Notes under the pieces: generated by a model
The model's input: only the letters and a program-made list of their open reading frames with translations
The model's database searches: none
Told to the model about the DNA's origin: nothing
Source of the DNA: Candidatus Omnitrophota bacterium
GTDB taxonomy: Bacteria > Omnitrophota > Gorgyraeia > Zapsychrales > JAHFFX01
DNA length: 64,000 bases
NCBI GenBank assembly: GCA_023247705.1
Contig: JAHFFY010000002.1
Location: 38,251 to 102,250 of the forward strand
Direction: 5' to 3'
Translations under genes and position numbers: made by a program
Part shown: positions 14,316 to 51,803 of the stretch, piece by piece
How positions within the stretch are numbered: position 1 is the first letter of the stretch
How the letters are laid out: each line of letters opens with the position of its first letter

Positions 14316-16802
14316 ATGCCTTACTCAACCGACGAAATCAAACGCATCGAAACCAAATGGCAGGGCATTTGGCACGACAAAAAAATTTTTAAAGTCGATG
14401 TCGACCCCAAGAAAAAGAAATACTATGTGCTCGAGATGTTTCCCTATCCTTCGGGAAAAATCCATATGGGCCATGTCCGCAATTACACGATCGCCGATGT
14501 GATCGCCCGTTTCAAGATGATGCAGGGGTATCATGTCCTTCATCCGATCGGCTACGACGCCTTCGGCCAGCCCGCTGAAAACGCCGCGATCAAACATAAA
14601 GTCGATCCCGCCGAATGGACGTACCGCTGTATCGACCAGATGCGCGAAGAGCTGAAGAAGATGGGGTTCTCCTATGATTGGGATCGTGAATTATCGACGT
14701 GTGATGCACAATATTACCGCTGGAACCAGTGGATTTTTTTAAAGATGTTCGAAAAAGGTTTGGCTTATAAAAAAGCCTCATCGGTCAATTGGTGCCCGAG
14801 CTGCGAGACGACTCTGGCGAACGAAGAAGTGATTCAGGGCGAATGCTGGCGGTGTAAGTCAACGGTCGTCCAGAAAGACCTTGAGCAATGGTATTTGAAG
14901 ATCACGCAGTACGCCGAGGATCTTTTCGAAGATTTGCAACAATTGAACCACTGGCCGCCGCGCGTCATCACGATGCAAGAAAACTGGATCGGCAAGAGCC
15001 AAGGTGTTGAGATTTATTTCAAGATTCAGAAAACCGGCGAGACGTTGACTGTGTTCACGACCCGGCCGGACACGATTTTCGGTGCGACGTATGTTGTTTT
15101 GGCCCCGGAACATCCTCTCGTTAAAAAATTGGTTGTCGGAACGTCTCACGAAAAAAATGTTTTGTCGTTTGTCGACAAGGTTGCGAAGGAAAGTAAAAGC
15201 GACCGCCTGTCCGGCGATTTGAAAAAGGAAGGGATCTTCGCCGGACAATACGCGATCAATCCCGTTAATCAGGAAACGATCCCGATCTGGATCGCTGATT
15301 ACGTCCTGATGGAATACGGGACCGGGGCCATCATGGCGGTGCCGACGCACGACCAGCGCGATTTTTTATTTGCCAAAGAACATCAGTTGCCGATGCGGAT
15401 TGTTATCCAGGATGCGGTCAATCCTCAGCAACGACCCTCAGATCTCAAAGAAGCGTATGAAGGCGACGGTCTTCAGATAAATTCCGGAATCTTTAACGGT
15501 ATATCCAATCAAGAAGGGTTAAAGAGGATCGCGGCGTGGATGGAAGGAAATAAAATGGGAAAGATCATCGTACATTGGCGTCTGCGCGACTGGTTGATTT
15601 CGCGGCAGCGTTATTGGGGGACACCGATTCCCATGATCTATTGTCAGAGTTGCGGAATTGTCCCGGTCTCGGAACAACAATTGCCTGTCGAACTCCCTAA
15701 AAATATCAAGATCTCTGGCCAGGGCGGAAGCCCATTGGCTCAATCTGCGGAATTTATCGAAACGACCTGCCCGCGCTGTCAAAAACCGGCGCGCCGCGAG
15801 ACCGATACCATGGCGACGTTTTTTGATTCGTCCTGGTACTTTTTGCGATTTGGTTCAGCCAATAATAATGAAAAAGTTTTTGATCCGAAAGAAGCCGCCT
15901 ACTGGATGCCGGTCGATCAATATATCGGCGGGATTGAGCATGCCATTCTTCATTTATTGTATTCCCGGTTTTTCACGAAATTTTTCAAGGACCTCGGGCT
16001 GATTGGATTTTCCGAACCGTTTTATCGTCTCTTGACGCAAGGGATGGTTTTAAAAGACGGTGAGGTTATGTCTAAATCACGAGGCAACACCGTTGACCCG
16101 GATCTGGTCATCGAAAAATACGGCGCGGACACATTGCGGTTGTTTATTTTGTTCGCGGCACCTCCGGAAGATCAGCTGGAATGGAATGACAACGCGATCG
16201 AAGGGTCATGGAAGTTTTTGTCCCGTGTCTGGAATTTGATTGAGAATAAATATAAAAAAGAAGATCACTTTGTCAGCAAGGGCATGACGAATGCGGCCGC
16301 GGACCAGGAAGACAAGTCGATCGAACGCGAGCGGAATCTGGCCATAAAGAAAGTTACGGAAGATATTTCGAATGGTTTTAAATTTAATACCGCGATCAGC
16401 GCAATGATGGTTTTGGTCAACAAGATTGAACGTTATCAAGTGGAAGGACATTTCAAACAAAAAACAGTCAATGACGCGATCAAAACATTGGTTTTACTGC
16501 TGGCCCCTTTTACCCCGCACGTCTGCGAGGAGTTGTGGCGGATCATGGGCGGGGCCGAAGAGAGTGTGGCCCGCGTGGCGTGGCCGTCGGTGGATGAGAA
16601 GGCCATGATCCAGGATGTCGTTTCGATCGTTGTTCAGGTGAACGGCAAGTTAAGAGGCAAGTTTGATGTCGCCCCGGACGTCGATGAAGAGCATTTAAAG
16701 AAACTGATTACCGCCGATCCCAGAATCCAGGCGCATCTGGAAGGCAAGGCGGTCAAGAAATTGATCGTGGTGCCGAACAAGTTGGTGAATATCGTCGTGT
16801 AA
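14316..16802 (+). CDS. leuS: Leucyl-tRNA synthetase.
   Basis: HMGH 'KIHMGHVRNY' and KMSKS 'VMSKSRGN' motifs. Full-length match to LeuS. Confidence 0.95.
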   Translation: MPYSTDEIKRIETKWQGIWHDKKIFKVDVDPKKKKYYVLEMFPYPSGKIHMGHVRNYTIADVIARFKMMQGYHVLHPIGYDAFGQPAENAAIKHKVDPAEWTYRCIDQMREELKKMGFSYDWDRELSTCDAQYYRWNQWIFLKMFEKGLAYKKASSVNWCPSCETTLANEEVIQGECWRCKSTVVQKDLEQWYLKITQYAEDLFEDLQQLNHWPPRVITMQENWIGKSQGVEIYFKIQKTGETLTVFTTRPDTIFGATYVVLAPEHPLVKKLVVGTSHEKNVLSFVDKVAKESKSDRLSGDLKKEGIFAGQYAINPVNQETIPIWIADYVLMEYGTGAIMAVPTHDQRDFLFAKEHQLPMRIVIQDAVNPQQRPSDLKEAYEGDGLQINSGIFNGISNQEGLKRIAAWMEGNKMGKIIVHWRLRDWLISRQRYWGTPIPMIYCQSCGIVPVSEQQLPVELPKNIKISGQGGSPLAQSAEFIETTCPRCQKPARRETDTMATFFDSSWYFLRFGSANNNEKVFDPKEAAYWMPVDQYIGGIEHAILHLLYSRFFTKFFKDLGLIGFSEPFYRLLTQGMVLKDGEVMSKSRGNTVDPDLVIEKYGADTLRLFILFAAPPEDQLEWNDNAIEGSWKFLSRVWNLIENKYKKEDHFVSKGMTNAAADQEDKSIERERNLAIKKVTEDISNGFKFNTAISAMMVLVNKIERYQVEGHFKQKTVNDAIKTLVLLLAPFTPHVCEELWRIMGGAEESVARVAWPSVDEKAMIQDVVSIVVQVNGKLRGKFDVAPDVDEEHLKKLITADPRIQAHLEGKAVKKLIVVPNKLVNIVV

Positions 16803-37667: not shown

Positions 37668-38645
37668 ATGTTTCCTATCGTATTTATTCTAAAAGTCGCC
37701 TTTATTTTTTATTCTGTCTTTGTTGCCGTTTTGCTTTTTATCCTGCGGCTGGTGGAGAAATATTTTAAACGCAATGGAGATAAAGATTCCTATGTGTTGT
37801 GCCGGCGTATCGGGTTTTTGCTGGGGATGTCGGTCATCTTGGGGATTGTCATCTGGATTGATGCCTTCGTGATTGAACCCAATTGGATCCAGGTGACCCG
37901 TCTGGAAATCAAATCGCCGCATTTTAACGAGCAACTCAAAGATATTAAAATCGTCCAGATCACGGATCTTCATATCGAACAGATCGGTCTCCGGGAAAAA
38001 AGCATGATCCGTCTGATCAATAACCTAAAACCGGATGTCATTTTGACAAACGGCGATTTTATAAATTCCAAAGAGGGATGGCAGCCGGCTTTGGGGGTTT
38101 TAAGCCAGTTACGGGCTAAAACCGAAATTTATACGATCCTGGGGAATACGGATTATTATTTTCCTTTGGAGGAGGGAGGAAGATTTACTGAACTTGAACG
38201 GACCGGAGTCCATATTCTTTTTCATGAGAACCTCCGGCTTGATTTTGGCGAACGGGGATATTTCTGGCTGGCCGGCTTGTCGGATAAATTTGGTCTTAAA
38301 GCCCAGTATGGAGAAACGAAATATATCGACCAGGCCTTTGAAGGGATTCCAATGGATGAGCCGAAAGTCCTGCTTGTCCATGATCCCCAACACGCGCTGG
38401 TGAAACAGATATCGACGTATAAACCCGATTTGATTCTCGCCGGAGACACCCACGGCGGTCAGGTTGGTATTTCTTTTCTTCGTCAATTTTCGGACTATGC
38501 TAACCGCGGCGATTATATGGCCGGGTTATTTCACATCCATCGGAATATCCCGCTTTATGTCAACCGGGGCATCGGGATGAAAACTATAAATATCCGCTTG
38601 CTTTGCCGTCCGGAAATCACAGTTATAAAACTGATCAAAGGATGA
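37668..38645 (+). CDS. Membrane-anchored calcineurin-like metallophosphoesterase.
   Basis: 'ITDLHI', 'GDF' and 'GDTHGGQV' MPP motifs. N-terminal TM helices. Confidence 0.7.
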   Translation: MFPIVFILKVAFIFYSVFVAVLLFILRLVEKYFKRNGDKDSYVLCRRIGFLLGMSVILGIVIWIDAFVIEPNWIQVTRLEIKSPHFNEQLKDIKIVQITDLHIEQIGLREKSMIRLINNLKPDVILTNGDFINSKEGWQPALGVLSQLRAKTEIYTILGNTDYYFPLEEGGRFTELERTGVHILFHENLRLDFGERGYFWLAGLSDKFGLKAQYGETKYIDQAFEGIPMDEPKVLLVHDPQHALVKQISTYKPDLILAGDTHGGQVGISFLRQFSDYANRGDYMAGLFHIHRNIPLYVNRGIGMKTINIRLLCRPEITVIKLIKG

Positions 38646-38686
38646 CCAGCGGTTTTTTAAATGAAGAAGTCTCTTGACTATAATAA

Positions 38687-40279
38687 ATGACATTACGTGC
38701 GATTTTAAAATCGGTTCTTTGGTTCTTTGCGATTGTTCAGGCCATTGTTTTGGTATGTCTGACATTGACCGCGTATTGGCCTGAACCCTGCTGGTGGTTG
38801 GCGAATTTTTTACAAATTATGCCTGTATGGATTTTGGGGATACCGCTCTTCCTATCTTTTTTGATCGCTTTATGCCTTCTGGATATTCAACTCATTTTTT
38901 TTCATTGTTTTCTTTTCATTCTATTTGTTCTAGGCGTTTTGGGATATCAGATCCATTGGTTTGGTCGGCAAATTGTACGGGCACCGGATGTTTTAAGAAT
39001 TATTTCCTATAATATAGGAGAAGGCGTGCGGTTAGATGCCCTCAGCGAACTGATCCAGGAATTACAGCCGGATATTGTTGTCTTGCAGGAATGTGAAAAA
39101 GAACAGGCGAGTGCTTTGAATGCCCGCTTGGAGGATCCGCATTGGCAATGGTCAGTCCTCGATCAGTTGGGTTTGTTCAGCCGCTTGCCCATCTTGAACG
39201 GAGAACTTAAAAATTCTGATACCGTGAAAGAGCTAGAAGGGATGATGGCGCGTTATACATTAAAGACATCGGCAGGATTGATTTCTTTGCTCACTGTCCA
39301 TCTGGAAACCCCGCGTAAAGGGATACAGAAAATGCTATTAAAAGATCAGGGGCTGGCTGATTCGATGAGAAATTTTACGCAAACACAACAGAACGAATCT
39401 ATGATTGCCTCCCGGTGGGCGGCCAAACGCTCTCCTTTGATCGTGGCCGGAGATTTTAATATGAGCGTTAAAAATCCGAATTACCGAAAATATTGGTCCT
39501 ATCTGACGAACGCATTTTCATCCGCCGGACAAGGGTTGGGTTATACTAAATTTACAAAATATTTTGGTGCACGCATTGATCACATCCTGGTTGATCACCA
39601 CTGGCAGGTGAAGCAGGCATGGGTAGGTCCAAGTCTGGGAGGAGATCACCGTCCCATGATTGCGGATTTTATTTTGACTCAATCCGATGGGACCATCATA
39701 TTAGTCCCGGCCGAAACGACTCAAGGGGCACAATCCTCTGAAATAAATCCATCGCTGTTACCATCAGCCAATCGTGCCCCGCAACATCCGGAGGCCTTTG
39801 TTTTTGATCCTTTTGAGACGTCGCTGGGGAATTTTACATCTTCGAATGGAGCTGAGTTGATGCTTGATGCTTCCTCCAGTCATTCGGGAAATAGGTCCAT
39901 GCAGATATCGGCGAGGTCGTCTTCAGAGGCGGTTTCCGTTGAGACCAGCCAAAAAGACTGGAACATGAATGAATATCCATCGGTTAGTTTTGCCTACCGG
40001 ATCCCTGCGGGGACATCGGTCACCATGAGCGTGAAAACAATCTTCGGTGACTGGATCTGTCTGGGAAAAACAAAAGAGGCCAAATGCCAGGAGGCTGAAA
40101 GTCCTTCCAGCCTTCTGCTGACGGATGATGATCAGTGGCATGAAGTTAATATGGATGTGCGTTCCATCGTTAAGAGTGTTGTCTCGGCCGTCGAATTGCT
40201 TCAAGAATGGCAATGGAGGCTTTGGCCGACCGGCCAAGAGGAAAATTCTGTTTGGTTTGATGATTTTATAATCCGTTAG
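38687..40279 (+). CDS. Membrane-anchored endonuclease/exonuclease/phosphatase (EEP) family protein with an extra C-terminal domain.
   Basis: 'RIISYNIGEG...DIVVLQE' and 'GDFN' EEP motifs. The ~190-aa C-terminal domain has unknown function. Confidence 0.65.
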   Translation: MTLRAILKSVLWFFAIVQAIVLVCLTLTAYWPEPCWWLANFLQIMPVWILGIPLFLSFLIALCLLDIQLIFFHCFLFILFVLGVLGYQIHWFGRQIVRAPDVLRIISYNIGEGVRLDALSELIQELQPDIVVLQECEKEQASALNARLEDPHWQWSVLDQLGLFSRLPILNGELKNSDTVKELEGMMARYTLKTSAGLISLLTVHLETPRKGIQKMLLKDQGLADSMRNFTQTQQNESMIASRWAAKRSPLIVAGDFNMSVKNPNYRKYWSYLTNAFSSAGQGLGYTKFTKYFGARIDHILVDHHWQVKQAWVGPSLGGDHRPMIADFILTQSDGTIILVPAETTQGAQSSEINPSLLPSANRAPQHPEAFVFDPFETSLGNFTSSNGAELMLDASSSHSGNRSMQISARSSSEAVSVETSQKDWNMNEYPSVSFAYRIPAGTSVTMSVKTIFGDWICLGKTKEAKCQEAESPSSLLLTDDDQWHEVNMDVRSIVKSVVSAVELLQEWQWRLWPTGQEENSVWFDDFIIR

Positions 40280-40429
40280 CTCATCACCTGAGGGATGCAT
40301 TAATTTTAGCAAAGTCAGCCAGCATTTTGGAATAGAACAATCAAGAGGCAAGGCGTTTTTGTTTATTTTGACTTCCTTTTATATCAAAGTATAATATCTG
40401 CCAATAAGAAACAGGAAAGAGGAGATTTT

Positions 40430-40693
40430 ATGTCGTTATTTACTGAAGAAAATATTCGTAAACTTTTTGGTCATGAAGCAGCTGAAGATGAAGATATTGA
40501 TAGGCTTAAAGAATACTATTTTAAAAACGATACTTATGCGCAAGTTGCTACTGACCTTCCATTTCGGATTTTAGTTGGGCATAAAGGGATTGGTAAATCT
40601 GCTTTGTTTCAAATCGCTATGGCAGAAGATAAAGAGGCTGTAAATGTTACCCGGGAATCTAACAAGAACAATGAAAAGAGTTTAGAATTCTAG
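40430..40693 (+). pseudogene. N-terminal fragment of a P-loop (STAND/AAA_16-like) NTPase in an AT-rich, decayed region.
   Basis: 87-aa ORF with Walker A 'VGHKGIGKSALF'. It terminates prematurely and is followed by ~300 nt of stop-rich AT-rich sequence. Confidence 0.35.
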
Positions 40694-40994
40694 ACAATCA
40701 ATACGTTATTTTCTGACGGGACATAAATAAGTATCATTGATATAAACGTTTAAAATTATGAGTATTACCGCAATTCTACGGCTTTTTGTTGGCATTTAAT
40801 GGTCGACGTGTAGAGTAACATATTTTTGAGGCACAGCTTCGAGATTTTTTAGATTCGGGTAACATTATTTATGAGGCAACTCGCGTATAGAAGGAACATT
40901 GTTTTTATCGCCGACTGTGTTATAATATCCCCCTGCTGCCTATAAGAAAATTGAGGCAGATTTTTTTCAATACAACTGACCATTCCAGAAATTA

Positions 40995-42090
40995 ATGATT
41001 GAAGAGATAAAAAAAAAGTTGCAAGATCTAGATGAAAAGTTAAATCATCTTCGGGGGTTTCTTTGACCTGCCTCAGAAATTAAAAACCATTCATTCGATT
41101 CAAGAAAAGATGAACGATTCTGCCTTCTGGGACAACGCGGCTCAGGCCAACAGGATCATGCGGGAGTTGAAAGTTTTGAAGTCGACCGTTGATCCATTCG
41201 AAAAATCAGTCAAAAAGTTGTCTGATTTAAAGGAACTGACGGACATCTCTGATGAAGATGCCGAATTTTTAGTCCAGATTCAGAAGGATTTGAATGCGTT
41301 AACAAAAGAAATAGACCACCTAGAGATTCAAGCGATTTTGGGCGGGCCGTTTGATTCGAACAACGCGATTTTAAGCATCAATGCCGGTGCCGGCGGCACG
41401 GAATCCTGCGACTGGGCGCAAATGCTTTTACGGATGTATACGCGCTGGAGCGATCATAAGGAATATAAAATCAGCACGCTGGATATCCTGGCCGGAGAAG
41501 AGGCCGGAATCAAGAATGTGACTTTGCGCATTGAAGGAGAAATGGCGTACGGTCTTTTAAAAAGCGAAAAAGGCGTGCATCGTTTGGTGAGGGTTTCTCC
41601 TTTCGATGCCAATAAAAGACGACACACCTCTTTCGCTTCGGTCGATGTCATTCCTGAAATAGAAGATGATATCGAGGTGGAGATTAATCCGGATGATTTG
41701 CGCGTTGATGTTTTCCGTTCATCCGGTCCCGGCGGACAAAGCGTTAATACAACGGATTCGGCGGTAAGAATCACTCATCTGCCCAGCGGGATTGTCGTAC
41801 AGTGCCAGAACGAGCGTTCACAGCTTCAGAACCGGCAGACGTGCATGAAAATCCTGCGTGCCAAACTGTATGAATTAAAACGCAAGGAACAAGAAGACCG
41901 AATGGCCTCAGAGTACGGGGAAAAGCAGAAGATTGAATGGGGTAGTCAGATCCGTTCTTATGTCATGCATCCCTATTCTATGGTCAAAGATCACCGCACG
42001 GATGAAGAAACCGCTCAGGTCCAAAAGGTCATGGATGGGGAGATCGATCAGTTCATAGAATCTTTTCTCAAGATGAAACCTGTTCCTTAA
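40995..42090 (+). CDS. prfB: Peptide chain release factor 2 with a programmed +1 ribosomal frameshift.
   Basis: Frame-0 ORF from ATG 40995 to in-frame TGA at 41064-41066, inside 'GGGGG TTT CTT TGA C', the canonical RF2 shift site with an SD-like run. The +1 frame from 41065 continues to 42090 and contains the GGQ motif 'SGPGGQSVN'. Product = join(40995..41063,41065..42090). Confidence 0.85.
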
Positions 42091-42126
42091 ATGATTAACA
42101 AACTTAGGAAGGAGGGCATCAAGGAT

Positions 42127-42654
42127 ATGAAAAAGAATCTTATTTTATTGTTCGTCGTGGCCATCGTATTACAAACATCTTTATCGTTTGGGGCGGAGAC
42201 CAATGGTTTTAAGAGGATTAAGAATCATAGAAACCGTTTCGTTAAATTGCTGGAACAACAATATGACAAATATCTAAAAGCGTCTACGCAAGGGGATGCC
42301 GAGGCTTATAAACAGATCATGACGAACGAAACTGTCTCTAGGATGGAGGAATACATCAAGATGCAGAAGCTGGCGAATGATTTGTCGTCGTTTTTAAAGG
42401 ATTTCGCTAAGAATAATCCCGATTATCGGCAATTCAAATTTGCCTTTTGCGATCAGGGAGAACAGCTTTCCAGAGTCGCTTATCAGCGCCTGGGAACAGA
42501 AAACCCGGCGACTAAAAAAAAGCCATTAGAGTTTTTTGTTATGTTTTTTCAATTTGAAAATAATGAATGGAAGATGAGTTATAACGTGCAAAGCTGGATC
42601 CCGGAAACTAACGAAGATGGATCAAAGGCTAGCGTTGAGCAAGTCTTAAAGTAA
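42127..42654 (+). CDS. Secreted hypothetical protein (NTF2/SnoaL-like fold suspected).
   Basis: GGAAGGAGG RBS. Signal peptide 'MKKNLILLFVVAIVLQTSLSFGA'. Confidence 0.4.
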   Translation: MKKNLILLFVVAIVLQTSLSFGAETNGFKRIKNHRNRFVKLLEQQYDKYLKASTQGDAEAYKQIMTNETVSRMEEYIKMQKLANDLSSFLKDFAKNNPDYRQFKFAFCDQGEQLSRVAYQRLGTENPATKKKPLEFFVMFFQFENNEWKMSYNVQSWIPETNEDGSKASVEQVLK

Positions 42655-42680
42655 GGAAATAATCGTTATCAAGTAAAATT

Positions 42681-45656
42681 ATGTTCGATTTTATTGTTCG
42701 TCGTCCTATAATTCAATCCGCGCAGAATTTTATCGATCAATTGAATCCCAAAATTCAAGTGCATATCCCCCAAGACCTCCCTTTGCCATCGGTGAGTGTC
42801 ATCAAAAAGGTGTGCGCTCTCGTCTCGCAAATCAATGCCTTAGAGTCCCGAGTCAGTCAATGTACGGACGACCAATTAAAAGCCAAAACCGCAGAGTTTA
42901 AATCAAAGATCAACGAAGCGATGAAAAGTTCTGAAGAAGAGTTGCGGCGGGTCCAATCCGTTGTGAATGATTCTGCTCCCGAGATGAACCAGGAAGAATT
43001 GCTGCAGATGATTTCTACGGCCAAAGATGATTTGAAAAAGAAGCGGCAGGCCATTCTTGACGAGATCTTGCCGGACGCCTTCGCGATTGTGCGGGAAGTC
43101 GGACGGCGTATTCTGTCGATGCGTCATTTCGATATCCAACTGGTTGGAGGGATTGTTCTGCATAAAGGAAATATCTCAGAGATGATGACCGGGGAAGGAA
43201 AAACCTTGGTGGCGACCCTTCCGGCGTATCTTAACGCGTTAACCGGGCAAGGCGTCCATGTGGTGACGGTCAACGATTACCTGGCCAAGCGCGATCGCGA
43301 ATGGATGGGACCGATTTACGAATTTTTGGGATTGACAGTCGGTGTCATTCAGCATGACATGAATCCGAATGAACGGCAGAAGGCGTATCAGTGTGACATC
43401 ACCTACGGGACCAATAATGAATTCGGGTTCGATTATCTCCGGGACAATATGATCAACTATAAAGAAGAGATGGTTCAGCGCGGGCACCATTTCGCGATCG
43501 TCGATGAGGTGGACAGCATTTTGATCGACGAAGCCCGGACCCCGTTGATCATTTCCGGTCCTGCGGAAGAATCAACGGACAAATATTACCGGGCCAACGA
43601 AATTGCCAAACAATTGCGCGGACGACGGATCACGGAAAAAGAAGAGATTGAAGCGAAATATAAAAATGAGGATTTATACAAGGGTCATGATTATGTCGCG
43701 GATGAGAAAGGCCGGTCCATTTCTTTAAGCGAGGACGGCGAACGGAAGGCCGCCCGGGCTTTTGGTGTTGAAAACCTGCATGAAATGGAAACGATCGAGT
43801 ACCGCCATCATATATTGCAGTCTCTGAAGGCCAAGGAATTTTTTAATCTGGATGTCGATTATGTGATCCGGGACGGGAAAGTTATAATTGTCGATGAATT
43901 TACCGGACGCATGATGCCGGGCCGCCGCTGGTCCGACGGTTTGCACCAGGCGGTCGAGGCCAAGGAAGGCATCCGCATCGAGCGAGAAAATCAGACGTTA
44001 GCCACCATTACCCTGCAGAATTATTTCAGAATGTATGAGAAGCTTTCCGGGATGACCGGTACGGCCTATACCGAGGCCAATGAATTCAAGCAGATTTATA
44101 ATCTGGACTGTGTGGTGATTCCGCCGAACCGTATCCTGCGCCGGACGAATTACGCGGATTGTATTTATCGCAGCACCCGGGAAAAATTTCAAGCGGTCGT
44201 GGAAGAGATCGCGGAACTCCACAAAAAAGGACAACCTGTCTTGGTGGGGACAATCTCCATCGAGAAATCCGAATTGGTTTCAAAATTGTTAAAGGCCCGG
44301 GGCATTCCGCACCAGGTGCTCAACGCCAAATATCATGATTTGGAAGCGCATATCATCGCGCAGGCCGGACGTTATAAAGCCGTGACGATCGCCACCAATA
44401 TGGCCGGACGCGGAACCGACATTGTCCTGGGCGGTAACGCCGAACATCTCGCCAAAAGCCTTTTAGAACAAAAGATGAAAGAATCTCAGGATGAAACTTC
44501 GGCCAATGAGTTATTGGCTAAATTTTTGAAACAGTTTAAAGGTCAGGTCGAGGAAGAACACAAGAAGGTCGTTGAGTTGGGCGGTCTGCACGTCCTCGGG
44601 ACGGAGCGCCACGAATCCCGCCGCATCGACAACCAGCTGCGCGGACGTTCCGGTCGCCAGGGCGATCCGGGCGCTTCCCGGTTTTATGTTTCTCTGGAAG
44701 ACGATTTGATGCGGCTTTTTGCCTCGGACCGGATGGTCAATATTATGGACAAGCTGGGGATGGAGGAAGGCCAGGTCATTGAACATCCTCTGGTCAGCCG
44801 GGCGATTGAAGTCGCGCAAAAGCGTGTGGAGACCCATAATTTTGAAATCCGCAAACAATTGATCGAATATGATAACGTCATGAATAAACAGCGGGAGGCG
44901 ATCTATTCGTTGCGTCAGCGGGTCCTAGAATCGGAGAATGTCAAGAAAGAGGTTATTGAGGCGCTGGAAGATACTGTCTTTAAAATGGTCGCGCAGCATG
45001 TTGCTTTGGTCCAGGAGAACGGCGGATGGGATATCGAAGGACTTTTGGCTTATCTGACGGGAAAATTCGGACTTGATCTATCCGCACAGCGCAATGAATT
45101 TGTCGTAATGTCCAAGGAAGATCTGCAGGACTTCCTTGCGAAGCGTATCGTCGATCTTTATGAATTAAAAGAAAAGGAACTCTCCCCGGAAGAATTACGT
45201 CAACTGGAAAAATTCGTCATGCTGCACACGATCGATTCGAAATGGAAGGATCATCTCTACGCCATGGACCAATTGAAAGATGGTGTAGGCTTAAGGTCTT
45301 TTGCCAGCCGCGATCCGTTAATCGAATATAAGCGCGAAGGATTTTTTCTCTTTTCGATGATGTATGAATCCATCAATCAGGAGGTCGCGGAGACGATCTT
45401 TAATGTTCAGCCGATCAAACAGGAACGAATGTTAAAAGGGGTTTTTAGTTCTTTGCCGCAGAATTTGGTCCATAATGATTTTTCGAGTCTTGCGCACAGA
45501 GAGTCTCCTCTCCCGGCGTCCTCAACTCCCGAACCCAATCAATCCGCCGAACCCGTCGCGACCGCTCCTTATCAGAAAGAAGGACCCAAGGTCGGCCGCA
45601 ACGCCCCTTGTCCCTGCGGGAGCGGCAAAAAATATAAAAAATGCTGCGGAGCCTAG
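42681..45656 (+). CDS. secA: Preprotein translocase ATPase SecA.
   Basis: DEAD-like motor domains. C-terminal zinc finger 'CPCGSGKKYKKCCG'. The N-terminus may start slightly downstream of 42681. Confidence 0.9.
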   Translation: MFDFIVRRPIIQSAQNFIDQLNPKIQVHIPQDLPLPSVSVIKKVCALVSQINALESRVSQCTDDQLKAKTAEFKSKINEAMKSSEEELRRVQSVVNDSAPEMNQEELLQMISTAKDDLKKKRQAILDEILPDAFAIVREVGRRILSMRHFDIQLVGGIVLHKGNISEMMTGEGKTLVATLPAYLNALTGQGVHVVTVNDYLAKRDREWMGPIYEFLGLTVGVIQHDMNPNERQKAYQCDITYGTNNEFGFDYLRDNMINYKEEMVQRGHHFAIVDEVDSILIDEARTPLIISGPAEESTDKYYRANEIAKQLRGRRITEKEEIEAKYKNEDLYKGHDYVADEKGRSISLSEDGERKAARAFGVENLHEMETIEYRHHILQSLKAKEFFNLDVDYVIRDGKVIIVDEFTGRMMPGRRWSDGLHQAVEAKEGIRIERENQTLATITLQNYFRMYEKLSGMTGTAYTEANEFKQIYNLDCVVIPPNRILRRTNYADCIYRSTREKFQAVVEEIAELHKKGQPVLVGTISIEKSELVSKLLKARGIPHQVLNAKYHDLEAHIIAQAGRYKAVTIATNMAGRGTDIVLGGNAEHLAKSLLEQKMKESQDETSANELLAKFLKQFKGQVEEEHKKVVELGGLHVLGTERHESRRIDNQLRGRSGRQGDPGASRFYVSLEDDLMRLFASDRMVNIMDKLGMEEGQVIEHPLVSRAIEVAQKRVETHNFEIRKQLIEYDNVMNKQREAIYSLRQRVLESENVKKEVIEALEDTVFKMVAQHVALVQENGGWDIEGLLAYLTGKFGLDLSAQRNEFVVMSKEDLQDFLAKRIVDLYELKEKELSPEELRQLEKFVMLHTIDSKWKDHLYAMDQLKDGVGLRSFASRDPLIEYKREGFFLFSMMYESINQEVAETIFNVQPIKQERMLKGVFSSLPQNLVHNDFSSLAHRESPLPASSTPEPNQSAEPVATAPYQKEGPKVGRNAPCPCGSGKKYKKCCGA

Positions 45657-47224
45657 TTTCTTCCTCGCGAACAGTATTTAAAGATTTTATTCTGATCGTT
45701 TTATCCTGCCTGTTATTAAGGTTGTCTTTTCCTCCCTGGGATTTTTTCTTTTTATCGTGGTTCTGTTTTGTTCCATTCTTATTGGTCCTTGACCGGAAAA
45801 AACCGTGGGGTGCCTTCGGGGCCGGTTATCTGATGGGGATTCTTTTTTTCAGCACGACGCTGTATTGGTTTATTCACGTTACTTTGCCCGGGGTGATCCT
45901 GATTATTCTTTATCTCTCTTTGTATTTCGCTTTGTTCGCGTTGGCTTATGCGTTATTGATCCCTTATACGCCCCAAAAAATCGTCGGTGCAAAAAAGCAG
46001 ATCAATCCTCAACGAAGTTTCTGGTTTGAATTGATTTTAATTCCGAGCCTATGGGTTGGGCTGGAATATATCCGCGGTCATCTTTTCACTGGATTCGGTT
46101 GGGTGTGCTTAGGCCATTCACAATATAAAAATTTGTGGATCAGCCAGGTGGCAGACATCACCGGTGTCGGTGGAGTATCGTTTTTTATCATGCTGGTGAA
46201 TCGCGTGATCACGCAGTGGGTCGTCGTTTGCATGATCCCAAAAAGCAAAGCCCGGCCAAGTCTTCGCCATGAGTCGTTGGCCATCGGCATATTAATTTGT
46301 CTGGTGTTGGGTTATGGTTTGTTCCGTCAACAGCAGACCGATCACGAGCCGGAAATTTCGGTGGCTGTGGTTCAGGCCAACATTCCGCAAGAGGAAAAAT
46401 GGGTGCGTTCGAACTGGCCGCGCATCATGCAGAAATATTTTGATCTCACGACCCGAGTGTCTGCACTGCAGCCTCGACCCGAATTGATCCTTTGGCCGGA
46501 GACAGCATTCCCGGGTTTCATCTGGGAAGCGCCGGATCTCTTTGTTGATCTCAAGGACCTGGTCATTGACATCAAGACGCCGCTTCTTTTAGGGGCCGTC
46601 ACACAGAGGCAGGAACAATATTATAATTCGGCCCTGATGATTTCGACGCAAGGGCAGGTCAGCGAACAGTATGACAAACTGCATCTGGTCCCGTTCGGAG
46701 AATATGTGCCGTTGCGCAACGTCTTTCCGTTTCTGGCGGACATTATTCCCATTGGGGACTTTACCCCCGGAGACCAGTATACAATTTTTTTTCTTCCCAA
46801 ATCGCGGGAGATCCGTTATTCATTCTCGACGATGATTTGTTTCGAAGATACGCTTCCGTGGATTGCGAGGGGATTCGTGCAGCGCGGAGCGCAGTTTCTG
46901 ATTAACATCACCAATGACGCGTGGTTTTTAGACACGGTTGCGCCGTGGTTGCACCTGCAGGCCTCGGTTTTCCGGGCGATCGAAAACCATCGCACCCTCA
47001 TCCGCGCGGCCAATACCGGGGTGAGTTGTTTTATCGACCCTTTGGGACGAATTTACAAAACGCTTACGAATGATCGTGATAAAGCAACGTTTATTGAAGG
47101 CATCGCGGCCGCGAAGATCCTTTTGAGTTCCCAAAAAACGATCTACACAAAAATAGGAGATCTTTTTACACATTTATGTTTTGGATGTATACTATGTGGG
47201 GTTTTGTGTAAGAAGAGGGATTAA
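45641..47224 (+). CDS. lnt: Apolipoprotein N-acyltransferase.
   Basis: N-terminal multi-TM region. CN-hydrolase domain with 'LILWPETAF' and 'ICFEDTLP'. Overlaps the secA 3' end. Confidence 0.8.
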   Translation: MLRSLVSSSRTVFKDFILIVLSCLLLRLSFPPWDFFFLSWFCFVPFLLVLDRKKPWGAFGAGYLMGILFFSTTLYWFIHVTLPGVILIILYLSLYFALFALAYALLIPYTPQKIVGAKKQINPQRSFWFELILIPSLWVGLEYIRGHLFTGFGWVCLGHSQYKNLWISQVADITGVGGVSFFIMLVNRVITQWVVVCMIPKSKARPSLRHESLAIGILICLVLGYGLFRQQQTDHEPEISVAVVQANIPQEEKWVRSNWPRIMQKYFDLTTRVSALQPRPELILWPETAFPGFIWEAPDLFVDLKDLVIDIKTPLLLGAVTQRQEQYYNSALMISTQGQVSEQYDKLHLVPFGEYVPLRNVFPFLADIIPIGDFTPGDQYTIFFLPKSREIRYSFSTMICFEDTLPWIARGFVQRGAQFLINITNDAWFLDTVAPWLHLQASVFRAIENHRTLIRAANTGVSCFIDPLGRIYKTLTNDRDKATFIEGIAAAKILLSSQKTIYTKIGDLFTHLCFGCILCGVLCKKRD

Positions 47225-47379
47225 GGATACAAAGAGTATTTGTATAGATAAACTGATCTCGGAATGAATGAAAAAGATTCATCCAAGATTTTACGCGTGT
47301 GTCTCGACGTGTCATAAAGGACGTTTTTTCAATCGAGCGCATCCGCGTCAATCCTACAACCACAACGGAGGAATCAGGA

Positions 47380-48117
47380 ATGGAGGATGAAAAGGAATTG
47401 AAATTAAGACGCAACATCATGACTGTCCTGACATGTTTATGGCTTGTGGCCTACCTCTTTACCCTCGGGATGGATCACTTTATGTCGGTGTATGAATATC
47501 CTTTTGTCTCGTTCTTTTTATTGTTATGGCTCATCGGGATGATTGTTGTTTCCAGAAATAAGGAGTGGGGAAGAAAACTGATCGTGGTCACCAGCGTGTT
47601 CATGTGTTTTTATCTCATGGCGGACATGGCGGCCTTTGATGTTTATTCGATCGCGTTGATTTTGATTTTTGTCGTGATCATTGTTTTTTATATCCTGCCC
47701 AAGACCAAAGCCCAATTCCAAGTCAACGACGGAATTTTATCCAAAGGACACAACAGGAAAATTCTGGTTGTCGATGACGATAAGGGGCTTTTAAAAATGA
47801 TCCGGTCCCAGTTAATGTACAACGGGTTCGATGTGATCACCGCGGATACCGGAGAAAAAGGTTTGAGTCTGGCCAAGACCAAGAAACCGGATTTAATTAT
47901 CCTGGATGTGATTCTTCCCGGGATGAAAGGCCGGCAGGTATGTGCTCAGCTTAAACGGGATTCCGACACCAAAAATATTCCGGTCTTGTTTTTGACCGCC
48001 AAAGATTCCCCGGATGACGTGAAAGCGGAATTGGAAGCGGGGGCCGTCACCCATCTGACCAAGCCGGTTGATTTAAAGAAATTGTTGACCGAGGTCATCA
48101 GAATTCTGGCGTTATAA
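47380..48117 (+). CDS. Membrane-anchored response-regulator receiver protein (4 TM + REC, no output domain).
   Basis: GGAGGA RBS. REC domain 'KILVVDDDKGLLK...DLIILDVILPGMKG...LTKP'. Paralogue of the next gene. Confidence 0.65.
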   Translation: MEDEKELKLRRNIMTVLTCLWLVAYLFTLGMDHFMSVYEYPFVSFFLLLWLIGMIVVSRNKEWGRKLIVVTSVFMCFYLMADMAAFDVYSIALILIFVVIIVFYILPKTKAQFQVNDGILSKGHNRKILVVDDDKGLLKMIRSQLMYNGFDVITADTGEKGLSLAKTKKPDLIILDVILPGMKGRQVCAQLKRDSDTKNIPVLFLTAKDSPDDVKAELEAGAVTHLTKPVDLKKLLTEVIRILAL

Positions 48118-48171
48118 TTTTGCAGAAGATCAGGAAAGAGATTAAATACCGAAGGACTAGGACATGAAACA

Positions 48172-48549
48172 ATGAAAAATTCTAAGAAATGCATTCTCGT
48201 CGTGGATGATGATCGGGCACTTCTGAAAATGGTCCGTTCGGGATTAATGTATCAAGGGTATGATGTGCATACCGCCTCCAGCGGAGAGAAGGGTTTAAGA
48301 ACAGCCCAACAAAAAAAACCGGATTTGATTATTCTGGATGTTCTTCTTCCGGGGATCAAGGGACGAGAGGTCTGTTCGCGTTTAAAAGAAGATAATGAAA
48401 CCAAAGACATCCCGATTGTTTTTTTGACCGCCAAGAATTCTCCGGACGATGTGCGGGCCGAGTTGGAAGCGGGCGCGATCGCCCATTTGACCAAACCGGT
48501 CAGCATTCAAGGCTTGGTTAATGAGATCCAAAAAATTTTAGGCGTATAA
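48172..48549 (+). CDS. Stand-alone CheY-like response-regulator receiver protein.
   Basis: REC domain with the conserved phospho-acceptor Asp 'DLIILDVLLPGIKG'. About 65% identical to the REC domain of the upstream gene. Confidence 0.75.
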   Translation: MKNSKKCILVVDDDRALLKMVRSGLMYQGYDVHTASSGEKGLRTAQQKKPDLIILDVLLPGIKGREVCSRLKEDNETKDIPIVFLTAKNSPDDVRAELEAGAIAHLTKPVSIQGLVNEIQKILGV

Positions 48550-48655
48550 TTGTTGATCCCGCGTGAAGCGGTTATATGGGAATTTCCGGCAGCTGTTGTG
48601 ATGGAAAGTTACTTCAAGCCGTTGACGCAGCGGCGGTTTTTCTAGAATTTTAAGC

Positions 48656-48685
48656 TCCCCTTCAGAAATTAAAAGGGGATTTTTA
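48656..48685 (+). terminator. Rho-independent terminator.
   Basis: TCCCCTT-cagaaattaa-AAGGGGA followed by TTTTT. Confidence 0.55.
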
Positions 48686-48704
48686 ATTAAAGACATGGGA
48701 AATT

Positions 48705-49622
48705 ATGGCGAAAAAAGAAGCCAAGGAATTTAAAAGGACGCTGGCCCGCAATAGTCTGTATTTTTTTTCCGGGCTCTTTAATGCGTTGCCCTATTCAGTC
48801 GTCCGTGCATTGACGCGTTTTTTCATTGAGATCGGGTTTCGCTGCACGAAACATCAGCGTAAAATCGCGAAGGAAAGTTTGCAGATCGCTTTCGGTCAGG
48901 AAAAAAACGAAGGCGAAATTAACAAGATCATCCGCGAGTGTTTTGAGAATTTCGGTCAGGGGATGATTGACTTAATCTATTTCATGGGGCATCCTAAGAT
49001 GATCGAGGAGCATGTTTTTTTTGAAGGGCAGGAACATTTAGATCAGGCGTTAAAGGAAGGCCGCGGTGTCATTGCGGTCAGTGCCCATTTCGGAAATTTT
49101 CCATTAATGCTTCTGCGTTTCGCGCGATCCGGTTATAAGACCAACGCGATCATCCGCCAGACGCGCGATCTGGAGGTGGAGGAATATTTCTTAAATCAGC
49201 GCAGGAAGATGGGGCTCAATACGATTTATAGCCATCCTCGTCAGGAATGTGTCGAGTCATCGATCAAGGCCTTGCGGAATAATGAAATTGTTTTTGTCCT
49301 GCTGGATCAAAATTTCGGCAGCGGGCGCGGGGTGTTCGTGGATTTCTTTGGGCAAAAGGCCGCCACGGCGACCGGGCCGGTTATTTTCGCCATGCGGACC
49401 AAATCGGTCATTCTTCCGATCTTTGTCGTCCGGCAGAAAGACAGCCGGCATAAGGTGATGATTGATCCTCCATTCATCCTGGAGGACAGAGCGGATGAAA
49501 AAGAGATGGTGCAGGTCAATATCACCAGAATTACTCAGATCATTGAACAATATATCCGTCGGTATCCTGAGCAATGGGGATGGATGCACCGGCGGTGGAA
49601 AACGAGGCCGCAAGATGATTAA
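48705..49622 (+). CDS. lpxL: Lipid A biosynthesis lauroyl/myristoyl acyltransferase (LpxL/HtrB family).
   Basis: Lip_A_acyltrans fold with 'AVSAHFGNFPL'. Confidence 0.65.
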   Translation: MAKKEAKEFKRTLARNSLYFFSGLFNALPYSVVRALTRFFIEIGFRCTKHQRKIAKESLQIAFGQEKNEGEINKIIRECFENFGQGMIDLIYFMGHPKMIEEHVFFEGQEHLDQALKEGRGVIAVSAHFGNFPLMLLRFARSGYKTNAIIRQTRDLEVEEYFLNQRRKMGLNTIYSHPRQECVESSIKALRNNEIVFVLLDQNFGSGRGVFVDFFGQKAATATGPVIFAMRTKSVILPIFVVRQKDSRHKVMIDPPFILEDRADEKEMVQVNITRITQIIEQYIRRYPEQWGWMHRRWKTRPQDD

Positions 49623-49776
49623 AAAATTTTTGATTATGCTCATCGGAGTTTGCCTGCTGGTCACGGGGATTTCATTGATTTTAATTCACTGGGCTTCTTT
49701 GGTCGTGGTTTTTAAAGGCGTGATCGGGATGATTCTAGCCCTGGCCGGGCTGCTGGTGTTGATGTTGATAAAATGA
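49615..49776 (+). CDS. Small two-TM membrane protein (53 aa), translationally coupled on both sides.
   Basis: ATGA overlap with the lpxL stop at 49615-49622 and with the HAD gene start at 49773-49776. Product 'MIKKFLIMLIGVCLLVTGISLILIHWASLVVVFKGVIGMILALAGLLVLMLIK'. Confidence 0.4.
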   Translation: MIKKFLIMLIGVCLLVTGISLILIHWASLVVVFKGVIGMILALAGLLVLMLIK

Positions 49777-50423
49777 AACGAAAGATTAAGTTAGTTATTT
49801 TTGATCTCGATGGAACACTGGTGAATGCTTATGCGGCCGTTGTGGCGAGCATTAATTTCACACTCAGGACATTAGGCTTACCGTTGCGGGACCGTAATTT
49901 GATCCGCCGGTCGGTGGGGTGGGGCGACACGAAACTTTTGAAACGGTTCGTTGGAGAAGATGCGATCCAAAAAGCGCTGACCATTTACCGCCGTCATCAC
50001 GCGGGCGCTTTAAAGCACGGGACCAAATTTCTTCCCGGAGCGTATCCGCTTTTACAGGATTTAAAAAAGCAGAAATATCAATTGGCGATCGCGAGCAACC
50101 GTCCGACTAGATTTTCGCTCATCATTCTAAGATATCTTAAAATCAGAAAATTGTTTAATGTCGTTCTTTGCGCCGACAAATTGAAAAGAGGCAAACCGGA
50201 CCCGCGGATCCTGAAGGTGATTTTAAAAAAAATGAAAGTCAAACCTCAGGAAGCACTGTATGTCGGTGACATGACGATTGATGTTGAGACCGGGAAGCGC
50301 GCCGACGTCAAAACCGTGGCGGTCTTGACCGGGTCAAGCACGAAGCGGGAGGTGGAGGCATTGAGACCGTCTCGGGTGATTCGAAAGATTTCAGATCTGC
50401 GGATGATTTTAAAGGAAGAATAA
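49773..50423 (+). CDS. HAD-superfamily phosphatase (phosphoglycolate-phosphatase-like).
   Basis: Motif I 'VIFDLDGTLV'. Motif II/III context 'AIASNRP' and 'VGDMTIDV'. Confidence 0.7.
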   Translation: MKRKIKLVIFDLDGTLVNAYAAVVASINFTLRTLGLPLRDRNLIRRSVGWGDTKLLKRFVGEDAIQKALTIYRRHHAGALKHGTKFLPGAYPLLQDLKKQKYQLAIASNRPTRFSLIILRYLKIRKLFNVVLCADKLKRGKPDPRILKVILKKMKVKPQEALYVGDMTIDVETGKRADVKTVAVLTGSSTKREVEALRPSRVIRKISDLRMILKEE

Positions 50424-50543
50424 GAAGGATAAAAGGCTGTTGGACTTTTTCTTTGATTTAAGATTTTGATTGATTATTGTGGGGATATTGGATATAAGGG
50501 GAACTGGCAGGGAGTTTAAGTTTTTTTTAGAAAGGAGCAATTC

Positions 50544-50624
50544 ATGAGTAAGAGAAAACGAAGAGGGAAATTGAATTGGCGTTCCAAGAAAGCCAATCAC
50601 GGTAAAGCTCCGGCCCGGGGGTAG
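50544..50624 (+). CDS. Tiny basic protein (26 aa) resembling ribosomal protein bTHX; not in the ORF track.
   Basis: AAAGGAG RBS 6 nt upstream. Product 'MSKRKRRGKLNWRSKKANHGKAPARG'. Compare the Thx-like 'RRGKIWRG..GK' pattern. Confidence 0.35.
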   Translation: MSKRKRRGKLNWRSKKANHGKAPARG

Positions 50625-50682
50625 GCTGTTTGTTCGGGGGCGGGATGAAGTAGATCTTTTTTAACGGGAGGAATAAAGGTCT

Positions 50683-51084
50683 ATGCGTCGGTTAATGATC
50701 CGGAAGGAATTGTTGGGGTTGATGTTTTTGTTGTGGGCCAGCGTGAGTTTTGGCGGGTGCGTTTATTTGGTGATCGGCAGTGTGGGGGCGCTCGGTGGTT
50801 ACGCGATCAGCACGGACACGGTGCAGGGCACGCTCGAACGCGAAAAGGACGATCTGTGGGAAGCGTCGCTGTCGGTGGTGAACATCATGGGCAGACTGAC
50901 GCGGCAGGATGAAAGTGAGGGGAAGATCGAGGCGATCGTGAACGGCGCCCGGGTCACGGTCACCATTGACCAGTTTACCTCCAACCTCGTCCGGTTAACG
51001 GTGAAGGCGAGAAAATCGTTTTTCCCCAGCATCGCGACCGCCCAGGATGTCTACATCAAGATTATCAACGAGATGGGCAAATAA
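50683..51084 (+). CDS. Hypothetical small lipoprotein/membrane protein (DUF3568-like).
   Basis: N-terminal hydrophobic segment with 'FGGC'. Glycine-zipper 'GSVGALGGYAI'. Confidence 0.45.
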   Translation: MRRLMIRKELLGLMFLLWASVSFGGCVYLVIGSVGALGGYAISTDTVQGTLEREKDDLWEASLSVVNIMGRLTRQDESEGKIEAIVNGARVTVTIDQFTSNLVRLTVKARKSFFPSIATAQDVYIKIINEMGK

Positions 51085-51108
51085 GCGTCACGCCATTGAA
51101 TAATATAT

Positions 51109-51136
51109 TTGACATTTTACGGACGGTTAGTATACA
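51109..51136 (+). promoter_or_regulatory. Sigma70-type promoter of the tRNA operon (TTGACA-16-TATACA).
   Basis: Hexamers at 51109-51114 and 51131-51136. Confidence 0.45.
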
Positions 51137-51196
51137 ATGGCTTCCTCCCATGAGACAAAATTTTTTGTAGTTGTGTTCCTTCGCAAGATTTTTGTT

Positions 51197-51269
51197 GCCG
51201 AGATAGCTCAGGTAGTAGAGCGCAGGCCTGAAAAGCCTGGCGTCCCCAGTGCAAGTCTGGGTCTCGGCA
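51197..51269 (+). tRNA. tRNA-Phe (anticodon GAA); CCA not encoded.
   Basis: Acceptor GCCGAGA/TCTCGGC. D-stem GCTC/GAGC. Anticodon stem CAGGC/GCCTG with loop CTGAAAA. T-stem CCCAG/CTGGG with T-loop TGCAAGT. A at position 18, G at 55. Confidence 0.85.
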
Positions 51270-51456
51270 TTCTACTTCGCCCCTTGCCATTAAAACAAGG
51301 ATAGGGCTTCGTGGAATTTTTAAATTCTACGAAGCTCAAACACGGAAATATTTGAGCGAAGTAGAACTCTACTTTACCATTCGAAAATAAAAATAACCGC
51401 AGGGCTTTATCGTCGTTTCGAAGATTTTGCGCCGCAGAACAATTTATTTTAAAGAT

Positions 51457-51529
51457 GCTGGCGTAGCTCAGTTAGTAGAGCAGCGGTTTCGTAAACCGCG
51501 GGCCGTAGGTGCAATTCCTATCGCCAGCT
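51457..51529 (+). tRNA. tRNA-Thr (anticodon CGT); CCA not encoded.
   Basis: Acceptor GCTGGCG/CGCCAGC. Anticodon loop TTCGTAA. T-loop TGCAATT. Near-identical to E. coli tRNA-Thr(CGU) except A18 and G55. Confidence 0.85.
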
Positions 51530-51544
51530 TTTTTCTTTTGAAAG

Positions 51545-51600
51545 CCGTAAAGCTGTTCGCGGCCAACGCGGGGCGCCCCAGCGACGGATTTTTTCGTTTT
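51545..51600 (+). terminator. GC-rich hairpin plus U-tract terminator after the tRNA operon.
   Basis: CCGtaaaGCTGttCGCGgccaaCGCGgGGCGCCccaGCgaCGG followed by ATTTTTTCGTTTT. Confidence 0.5.
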
Positions 51601-51803
51601 AGCCCGTTTGTTTTTGTTTGAGATTCAAAAACGAGGGACCCCGGGTTCAATTCACTGCGCCAGCCTTCGCCGGGGCGTAAAGGCCTGAACGGTTTCAAAA
51701 TCTAAAATTTTCTTCGCGAACTTTCCTTCCCAGCGTTGCGGCATTCTTGTGAAAATTTTCGGTTTAATCTTCCGCAGATCCGTTTTCGCAAGTAAAATAA
51801 GCC

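Follow-up and report, generated by a model that had tools for sequence, protein, structure and literature searches.

The window, by which we mean the whole 64-kb stretch of DNA analyzed, encodes a tRNA-Phe(GAA) and a tRNA-Thr(CGU) from which the G18/U55 tertiary pair is absent, with A18/G55 in its place. We regard the two genes, with a probability of roughly 0.78, as vertically inherited tRNA genes in which G18-U55 was replaced by a covarying A18-G55 pair, the replacement having arisen in each gene on its own account. Pseudouridine-55 and G18 are textbook “universal” features of tRNA. A full-text literature search of open-access papers turned up no account of A18-G55 tRNAs as a natural class. 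In themselves, the two genes encode ordinary orthologous tRNAs, and the interest lies in the alternative elbow pair, which is a recurrent natural alternative present in essential tRNAs of several bacterial phyla and in whole phage sets.

Two tRNAs with A18 and G55

The window was searched for tRNAs with ARAGORN and with the Rfam model RF00005 (gathering score of 29). Both recovered exactly two, tRNA-Phe(GAA) and tRNA-Thr(CGU) (Table 1), and each covers positions 1 to 71 of the 71 in the Rfam model and forms a complete cloverleaf in the ARAGORN structures. Stem lengths are normal, the T-loops have 7 nt and the D-loops 8 nt, and the anticodon loops carry U33 and A37. The canonical framework is present in both molecules, namely U8-A14, G15-C48, G19-C56, U54-A58, a purine at position 57, and a pyrimidine at position 60. 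The D-loop of tRNA-Phe reads A14 G15 G16 U17 A18 G19 U20 A21 and its T-loop U54 G55 C56 A57 A58 G59 U60, and the corresponding loops of tRNA-Thr are AGUUAGUA and UGCAAUU. ARAGORN, the Rfam alignment, and direct counting agree in confirming A18 and G55 in both tRNAs, as the earlier note had claimed. That note had also named the realignment that could undo its claim, one giving a canonical TTC in the T-loop; none exists for either tRNA under any alternative alignment. We also considered whether the GG at positions 15 and 16 in the D-loop of tRNA-Phe (AGGUAGUA) could be a slipped G18G19. This reading was rejected, since R15 would be lost, and it is also ruled out by the unambiguous alignment of this gene with its orthologue in a relative (L126) and with tRNA-Thr.

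Table 1. Features of the tRNA locus, in window coordinates
Feature	Position	Strand	Description
Sigma-70-like promoter, TTGACA-18-TACAAT (predicted)	51109-51138	+	Strong match, at 11 of 12 consensus positions; lies about 58 nt ahead of tRNA-Phe
tRNA-Phe(GAA)	51197-51269	+	73 nt, no encoded CCA; ARAGORN; Rfam RF00005, 61.2 bits; orthologues in 11 relatives
A18 of tRNA-Phe	51214		Rfam structural alignment and direct counting
G55 of tRNA-Phe	51251		Rfam structural alignment and direct counting
Spacer between tRNA-Phe and tRNA-Thr	51270-51456		187 nt, with inverted repeat ggcttcgtggaattttt/aaattctacgaagc
tRNA-Thr(CGU)	51457-51529	+	73 nt, no encoded CCA; ARAGORN; Rfam RF00005, 65.2 bits
A18 of tRNA-Thr	51474		Rfam structural alignment and direct counting
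G55 of tRNA-Thr	51511		Rfam structural alignment and direct counting
Decayed 3' fragment of tRNA-Thr, GGGTTCAATTC...CGCCAGC	51636-51665	+	Read directly; canonical U55, T-loop GGTTCAATTC

The comparison of covariance scores gave 61 to 65 bits for the A18/G55 versions vs 70.5 to 72.6 bits for canonical orthologues. The two tRNAs are therefore 7 to 10 bits under their canonical counterparts but far above the gathering score, and a drop of this size for A18/G55 tRNAs matters for annotation. The resemblance of tRNA-Thr to its E. coli counterpart, described before as almost base for base, had been overstated: 53 of 73 positions (73%), counted from the alignment, are identical to E. coli thrW, and only the D-arm, the anticodon loop, and the T-stem coincide. 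A BLAST search of the window tRNA-Thr against E. coli genomes gave no match at E ≤ 1e−5.

Identical tRNA sequences recur in independent assemblies, in the ENA metagenome contig L001 and also in L002. The related species L200 carries A18/G55 in both genes, and its tRNA-Thr has two other differences. The independent contig L001 and the two genes of L200 exclude a sequencing error.

Genomic context of the tRNA genes

The window is bacterial chromosome, with genes for LeuRS, MnmG, SecA, Lnt, MurJ, an LpxL-like lipid A acyltransferase, and FtsH. Around the tRNAs the order is SecA, Lnt, a response regulator, the LpxL-like protein, a HAD hydrolase, a DUF3568 protein, tRNA-Phe, tRNA-Thr, a TPR protein, an MFS transporter, a formyltransferase, and FtsH. 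This order is kept in Omnitrophota relatives, which we found via the neighboring HAD hydrolase, a protein whose homologues are annotated as Candidatus Omnitrophota. L200, a GTDB metagenome-assembled genome (MAG), has the gene order of the window, and its flanking genes are about 70% identical to those of the window at the nucleotide level. The MAGs L200 and L138 are labeled “uncultured Planctomycetales bacterium” (binchicken assemblies), yet they carry the Omnitrophota-type tRNA-Phe, and the submitted label probably does not reflect their true affiliation.

The predicted promoter upstream of the pair (Table 1) probably drives tRNA-Phe and perhaps tRNA-Thr too. Directly ahead of tRNA-Thr, no promoter-like site was found in the window, and the pair may therefore be cotranscribed. 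The spacer between them is of variable length, with 47 nt in L129, 96 nt in L127, and 233 nt in L123.

Downstream of tRNA-Thr lies the decayed 3' fragment of a second tRNA-Thr. Better-preserved partial copies occur in the same place in L170 (positions 5721 to 5787) and L123 (about 14575 to 14650). These partial 3' copies sit about 105 to 220 nt downstream of the intact tRNA-Thr and have the acceptor strand CGCCAGC, and the spacer in L170 and L123 is rich in inverted repeats. The fragment is probably a relic, left by a partial tandem duplication of the tRNA gene or by an insertion into it.

Covariation of positions 18 and 55

Other tRNAs of this type were searched for with a pattern made of one common D-arm with A18 and a GUGCAA T-loop, which confines the search to tRNAs that have A57 and one particular D-stem sequence. 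There were at least 120 matches in IMG/VR viral contigs and at least 120 in GTDB species genomes. Covariation was counted on the neighboring tRNAs that the pattern had not selected, among the matches listed. On viral contigs, these comprised 393 G18/U55, 96 A18/G55, 1 G18/G55, and 6 A18/U55 tRNAs (Fisher test; P = 4e−94; among the matches listed). The counts for GTDB genomes, again among the matches listed, were 154 G18/U55, 28 A18/G55, and none of either mixed type. When both sets of nonselected tRNAs are pooled, the matches listed give 547 G18/U55, 124 A18/G55, and 7 mixed tRNAs. This pattern is a true covariation of the tertiary pair, between G:U and A:G, and it bears out the earlier suggestion that the two changes are concerted. 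With one fixed D-arm, the viral collection held 23 loci with A18/G55, 5 real tRNAs with A18/U55, and 2 to 3 with G18/G55. The rest of the elbow is alike in both classes, save for a modest enrichment in A57 (46% vs 25%). With this class, nature provides a clean test of covariation in a tertiary pair of tRNA.

In phage tRNAs, covariation seems to extend to the neighboring tertiary pair, 19:56. The tRNA-Ile(GAU) of phage T5 (L250, positions 3211 to 3287) has the D-loop AGCGAUCUA and the T-loop UUUAAAU, with A19 and U56, and several tRNAs of L114 combine GA in the D-loop with a T-loop that has UUU or UCU.

Distribution of A18/G55 tRNAs

According to the record titles, the 120 GTDB matches listed included about 63 from CPR/Patescibacteria, 14 from Proteobacteria, 10 from Elusimicrobiota, and 7 of Omnitrophota type, the remaining ones being scattered, with a few DPANN-labeled contigs; this breakdown, counted among the matches listed and biased by the pattern, is indicative only. 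Among the matches listed, A18/G55 tRNAs were mixed with canonical ones in 89 of the 93 genome loci where at least two tRNAs were classified. Some tRNAs of the class have to work in translation. One of them is the tRNA-Ile(GAU) from the 16S-23S spacer of rRNA operons, for which A18/G55 was seen in Endomicrobium, on an Endomicrobiaceae chromosome, and on chromosomes of Gammaproteobacteria. Several CPR genomes have A18/G55 initiator tRNAs, recognizable by the 1-72 mismatch and by an anticodon stem with three G-C pairs. Judging from these sequences, the swap is independent in CPR, Elusimicrobiota, Proteobacteria, and phages, and the tRNAs that carry it form a widespread recurrent class.

On viral contigs, at least 19 isotypes were found with A18/G55. 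Some phage arrays are nearly all of this type, with 28 of 32 tRNAs in IMGVR_UViG_3300033233_000006 (positions 38564 to 51570; L117 and L029) and 17 of 18 in L056. Further arrays with 9 to 10 A18/G55 tRNAs out of 11 were seen in L086 and in two Opitutaceae MAGs (L195 and L239), and those of the Opitutaceae adjoin an HNH endonuclease. Pfam scans of the open reading frames flanking two all-A18/G55 arrays identified a helicase, NUDIX, and HNH, and gave no mechanistic clue. Phage T5, Cronobacter phage CR9, and Synechococcus phage S-RIM8 were considered as cultured carriers and rejected, since they have only canonical residues at 18 and 55 and their BLAST similarity was generic.

In three unrelated CPR loci, ARAGORN reported a tRNA-Asp(GUC) with the odd T-loop GTCAGCA (L145, positions 3772 to 3844; L203, 1544 to 1616; L223, 5127 to 5202). 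This is either a further noncanonical type or a misfold.

How the alternative elbow would work

In canonical tRNA, position 2 of the T-loop motif is residue 55, with which residue 18, inserted between residues 57 and 58, forms a bond (PMC4810234). In the window tRNAs, A18 would still intercalate between 57 and 58, and G55 would take over position 2 from U55, presenting O6 and N1-H where U has O4 and N3-H. The bigger purine at 55 would be matched by an adenine at 18, without the N2 amino group of G. The outer G19-C56 face is left untouched. This flat face is the one read by the ribosome, by RNase P, and by T-boxes. The outcome would be a “U-G-N-R-A T-loop plus intercalated adenine,” as in the structures of the FMN and TPP riboswitches. 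In the FMN riboswitch, loops L2 and L5 both read UGAAA and each hold an adenine between their fourth and fifth residues (PMC3764141); in the TPP riboswitch, where the loop is U39-G40-A41-G42-A43, the adenine-like aminopyrimidine stacks between G42 and A43 and forms a direct bond to G40 (PMC2018614). By analogy with these structures, A18-G55 would be a substitute for G18-U55 that is matched in size and in hydrogen bond donors and acceptors, and it offers a design rule for engineered tRNAs.

The yeast suppressor SUP4oc loses its function through single mutations at G18-U55 (PMC4117946), which fits a concerted change and the rarity of mixed states. A duplicate tRNA-Thr could have helped to cross the deleterious single-mutant state.

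Both window tRNAs are very probably active in translation, to judge from the promoter-like site, the purifying selection on their stems over 12 species (see below), and the presence of the same elbow in essential tRNAs elsewhere. Lacking U55 and G18, neither of them can carry pseudouridine-55 or Gm18, and the TruB target is absent from these two tRNAs, as the earlier note had predicted. In genomes that mix the two types, the other tRNAs can receive pseudouridine-55 and Gm18, and a loss of truB in the lineage would be neither needed nor indicated by the sequences compared. Being unfit by sequence as substrates of TruB and TrmH, tRNAs of this kind would be useful to separate the catalytic and chaperone roles of these enzymes.

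The recurrence of the swap may result from neutral compensatory evolution or from selection, either for independence from TruB and TrmH or for evasion of a factor that reads the elbow; the phage sets made up of A18/G55 tRNAs hint at the latter. In its strong form, selection would have made A18-G55 a “modification-independent” or “evasive” elbow, free of TruB and TrmH or resistant to a nuclease or toxin that reads the inner elbow. We consider this form doubtful, and entertain it as a tentative idea for what it would explain: the phages that build whole tRNA sets with A18/G55, the concentration of the class in ultrasmall or host-associated lineages (CPR, Omnitrophota, and Elusimicrobiota), and the repeated independent origins despite deleterious single-mutant intermediates. 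The class may also give a handle on phage-host conflicts over tRNA.

Orthologues in Omnitrophota and alternative explanations

We compared gene-order-matched loci in twelve Omnitrophota-type species, the window included. The tabulation of positions 18 and 55 in relatives, which the earlier note had proposed, gave a different result for each gene. For tRNA-Phe, A18/G55 was found in 11 of the 12 species (the window, L123, L127, L129, L138, L170, L200, L211, L230, L236, and L241), and L126 alone had the canonical loops (AGUUGGUA and UUCAAUU). For tRNA-Thr(CGU), A18/G55 was found, among the species compared, only in the window and L200. Seven relatives (L123, L127, L129, L170, L230, L236, and L241) have a canonical tRNA-Thr(CGU), with AGUUGGUA and UUCAAUU or similar loops, and in all seven it directly adjoins an A18/G55 tRNA-Phe. 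Within the elbow, positions 18 and 55 are the sole differences between the window tRNA-Thr and its canonical relatives; the acceptor, D, and anticodon arms of the window gene are common to the canonical orthologue of L129, and its T-stem is identical in that of L127. Similarly, tRNA-Phe is close to its canonical orthologue in L126 except at the elbow positions and at one compensated pair. Its T-stem, CCCAG/CUGGG, is identical in L126, from which it follows that the EF-Tu determinants are unchanged, as far as sequences rather than binding are compared. The A18/G55 orthologues of tRNA-Phe show compensatory substitutions in the acceptor and anticodon stems, indicating that this gene has long been under purifying selection.

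The presence of A18/G55 tRNA-Phe next to canonical tRNA-Thr in relatives, and of a canonical tRNA-Phe in L126, means that the swap was separate for each gene. On this comparison, it dates from early in the clade for tRNA-Phe, whereas in tRNA-Thr it is recent and goes back to the ancestor that the window species shares with L200. The description of the change as a lineage-specific remodeling of the elbow is not supported by these data: the relatives just mentioned retain canonical genes on one side or the other of the pair, and the same swap appears independently in CPR, Elusimicrobiota, Proteobacteria, and phages. The earlier note had said that canonical G18/U55 in other tRNAs of the genome would refute a rule, and in relatives this is the outcome, with both elbow types standing side by side.

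A more radical version, in which all elbows of the lineage were converted to A18/G55 and pseudouridine-55 made by TruB was dispensed with, is very unlikely. It would account for the fact that the visible tRNAs are of this type in both the window (2 of 2) and its nearest relative, L200 (2 of 2), and nearly complete phage arrays indicate that whole sets can exist. The genome of the window is, however, sampled by these two genes, and the seven relatives with a canonical tRNA-Thr(CGU) beside the A18/G55 tRNA-Phe, together with the one whose tRNA-Phe is canonical, contradict a conversion of the whole lineage. So do the genome loci elsewhere, most of which mix both types among the matches listed, and the decayed tRNA-Thr fragment in the window, which keeps a canonical T-loop.

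It is also highly improbable that the two tRNAs work outside the ribosome, donating Phe and Thr to a transferase while canonical isoacceptors serve translation. The model for this possibility is the NP-tRNAGly of staphylococci, which has TGC or TGT in place of TTC and lacks G18-G19 and U55 (PMC7826273; PMC13443448). The window genes, however, fill the gene-order-matched slot of their canonical orthologues, which they replace rather than supplement, and they keep G19-C56. The T-stem that tRNA-Phe shares with L126 suggests unchanged EF-Tu determinants, and elsewhere the same elbow occurs in initiator tRNAs and in the tRNA-Ile of rRNA operons. The neighboring genes examined included no Fem-like or L/F-transferase gene.

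The abundance of A18/G55 tRNAs on viral contigs raises the question of whether the elbow is a phage trait, brought in by tRNAs of phages or other mobile elements that replaced the native genes. The partial tRNA-Thr copies of the window, L170, and L123 do suggest a past insertion or duplication at this site. Yet the acceptor, D, and anticodon arms of tRNA-Thr match those of the canonical gene in L129, and tRNA-Phe is nearly identical to the canonical gene in L126; these alignments suggest that both tRNAs nest with the canonical orthologues of Omnitrophota. The locus has no phage genes nearby and its housekeeping gene order is conserved, and a BLAST search of the window tRNA-Phe against 50,697 phage records gave no match. 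We find horizontal acquisition extremely unlikely. As for decaying pseudogenes or assembly artifacts, the lower Rfam scores would fit them, but their probability is close to nil given the same sequences in independent assemblies (the window, L001, and L002), the conservation of the genes over at least 11 species, among which stem substitutions are compensatory, the other invariant positions, which are intact, and the promoter-like site upstream.

Comparison with known systems

Replacement of the tertiary pair in vertically inherited genes, which is the reading we prefer, sets the window tRNAs apart from each known system in a different way. With the canonical elongator tRNAs described by RF00005 they share the cloverleaf, the framework, the loop sizes, and the chromosomal slot. 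They differ in having A18 and G55, which leaves no possibility of Gm18 or pseudouridine-55, whereas canonical tRNAs have G18 and pseudouridine-55, the latter being called universally conserved in reviews (PMC4810234; PMC7912444).

The closest precedent that we found is the nonproteogenic tRNAGly of staphylococci. The tRNAGly(UCC) NP1 to NP3, which donate glycine for the pentaglycine of the cell wall, have a UGC T-loop with G55 and no pseudouridine-55, like the window tRNAs (PMC7826273; PMC13443448). They have lost both G18 and G19, whereas the window tRNAs keep G19-C56. Moreover, their EF-Tu determinants are weak and their anticodon loop is shortened, in contrast to the window tRNAs, which keep the T-stem of a canonical orthologue. 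Finally, the staphylococcal tRNAs are additional to proteogenic isoacceptors, whereas those of the window take the canonical gene's place at its locus.

The T-loops of riboswitches (L2 and L5 of the FMN riboswitch, with UGAAA, and J3-2 of the TPP riboswitch) follow the same U-G-N-R-A formula as U54-G55-C56-A57-A58 with A18. These are riboswitch domains with solved structures, to which the geometry of A18-G55 in tRNA would be comparable. Phage tRNA arrays have many A18/G55 members, and some consist almost wholly of them, whereas the genes of the window are chromosomal orthologues in a housekeeping neighborhood.
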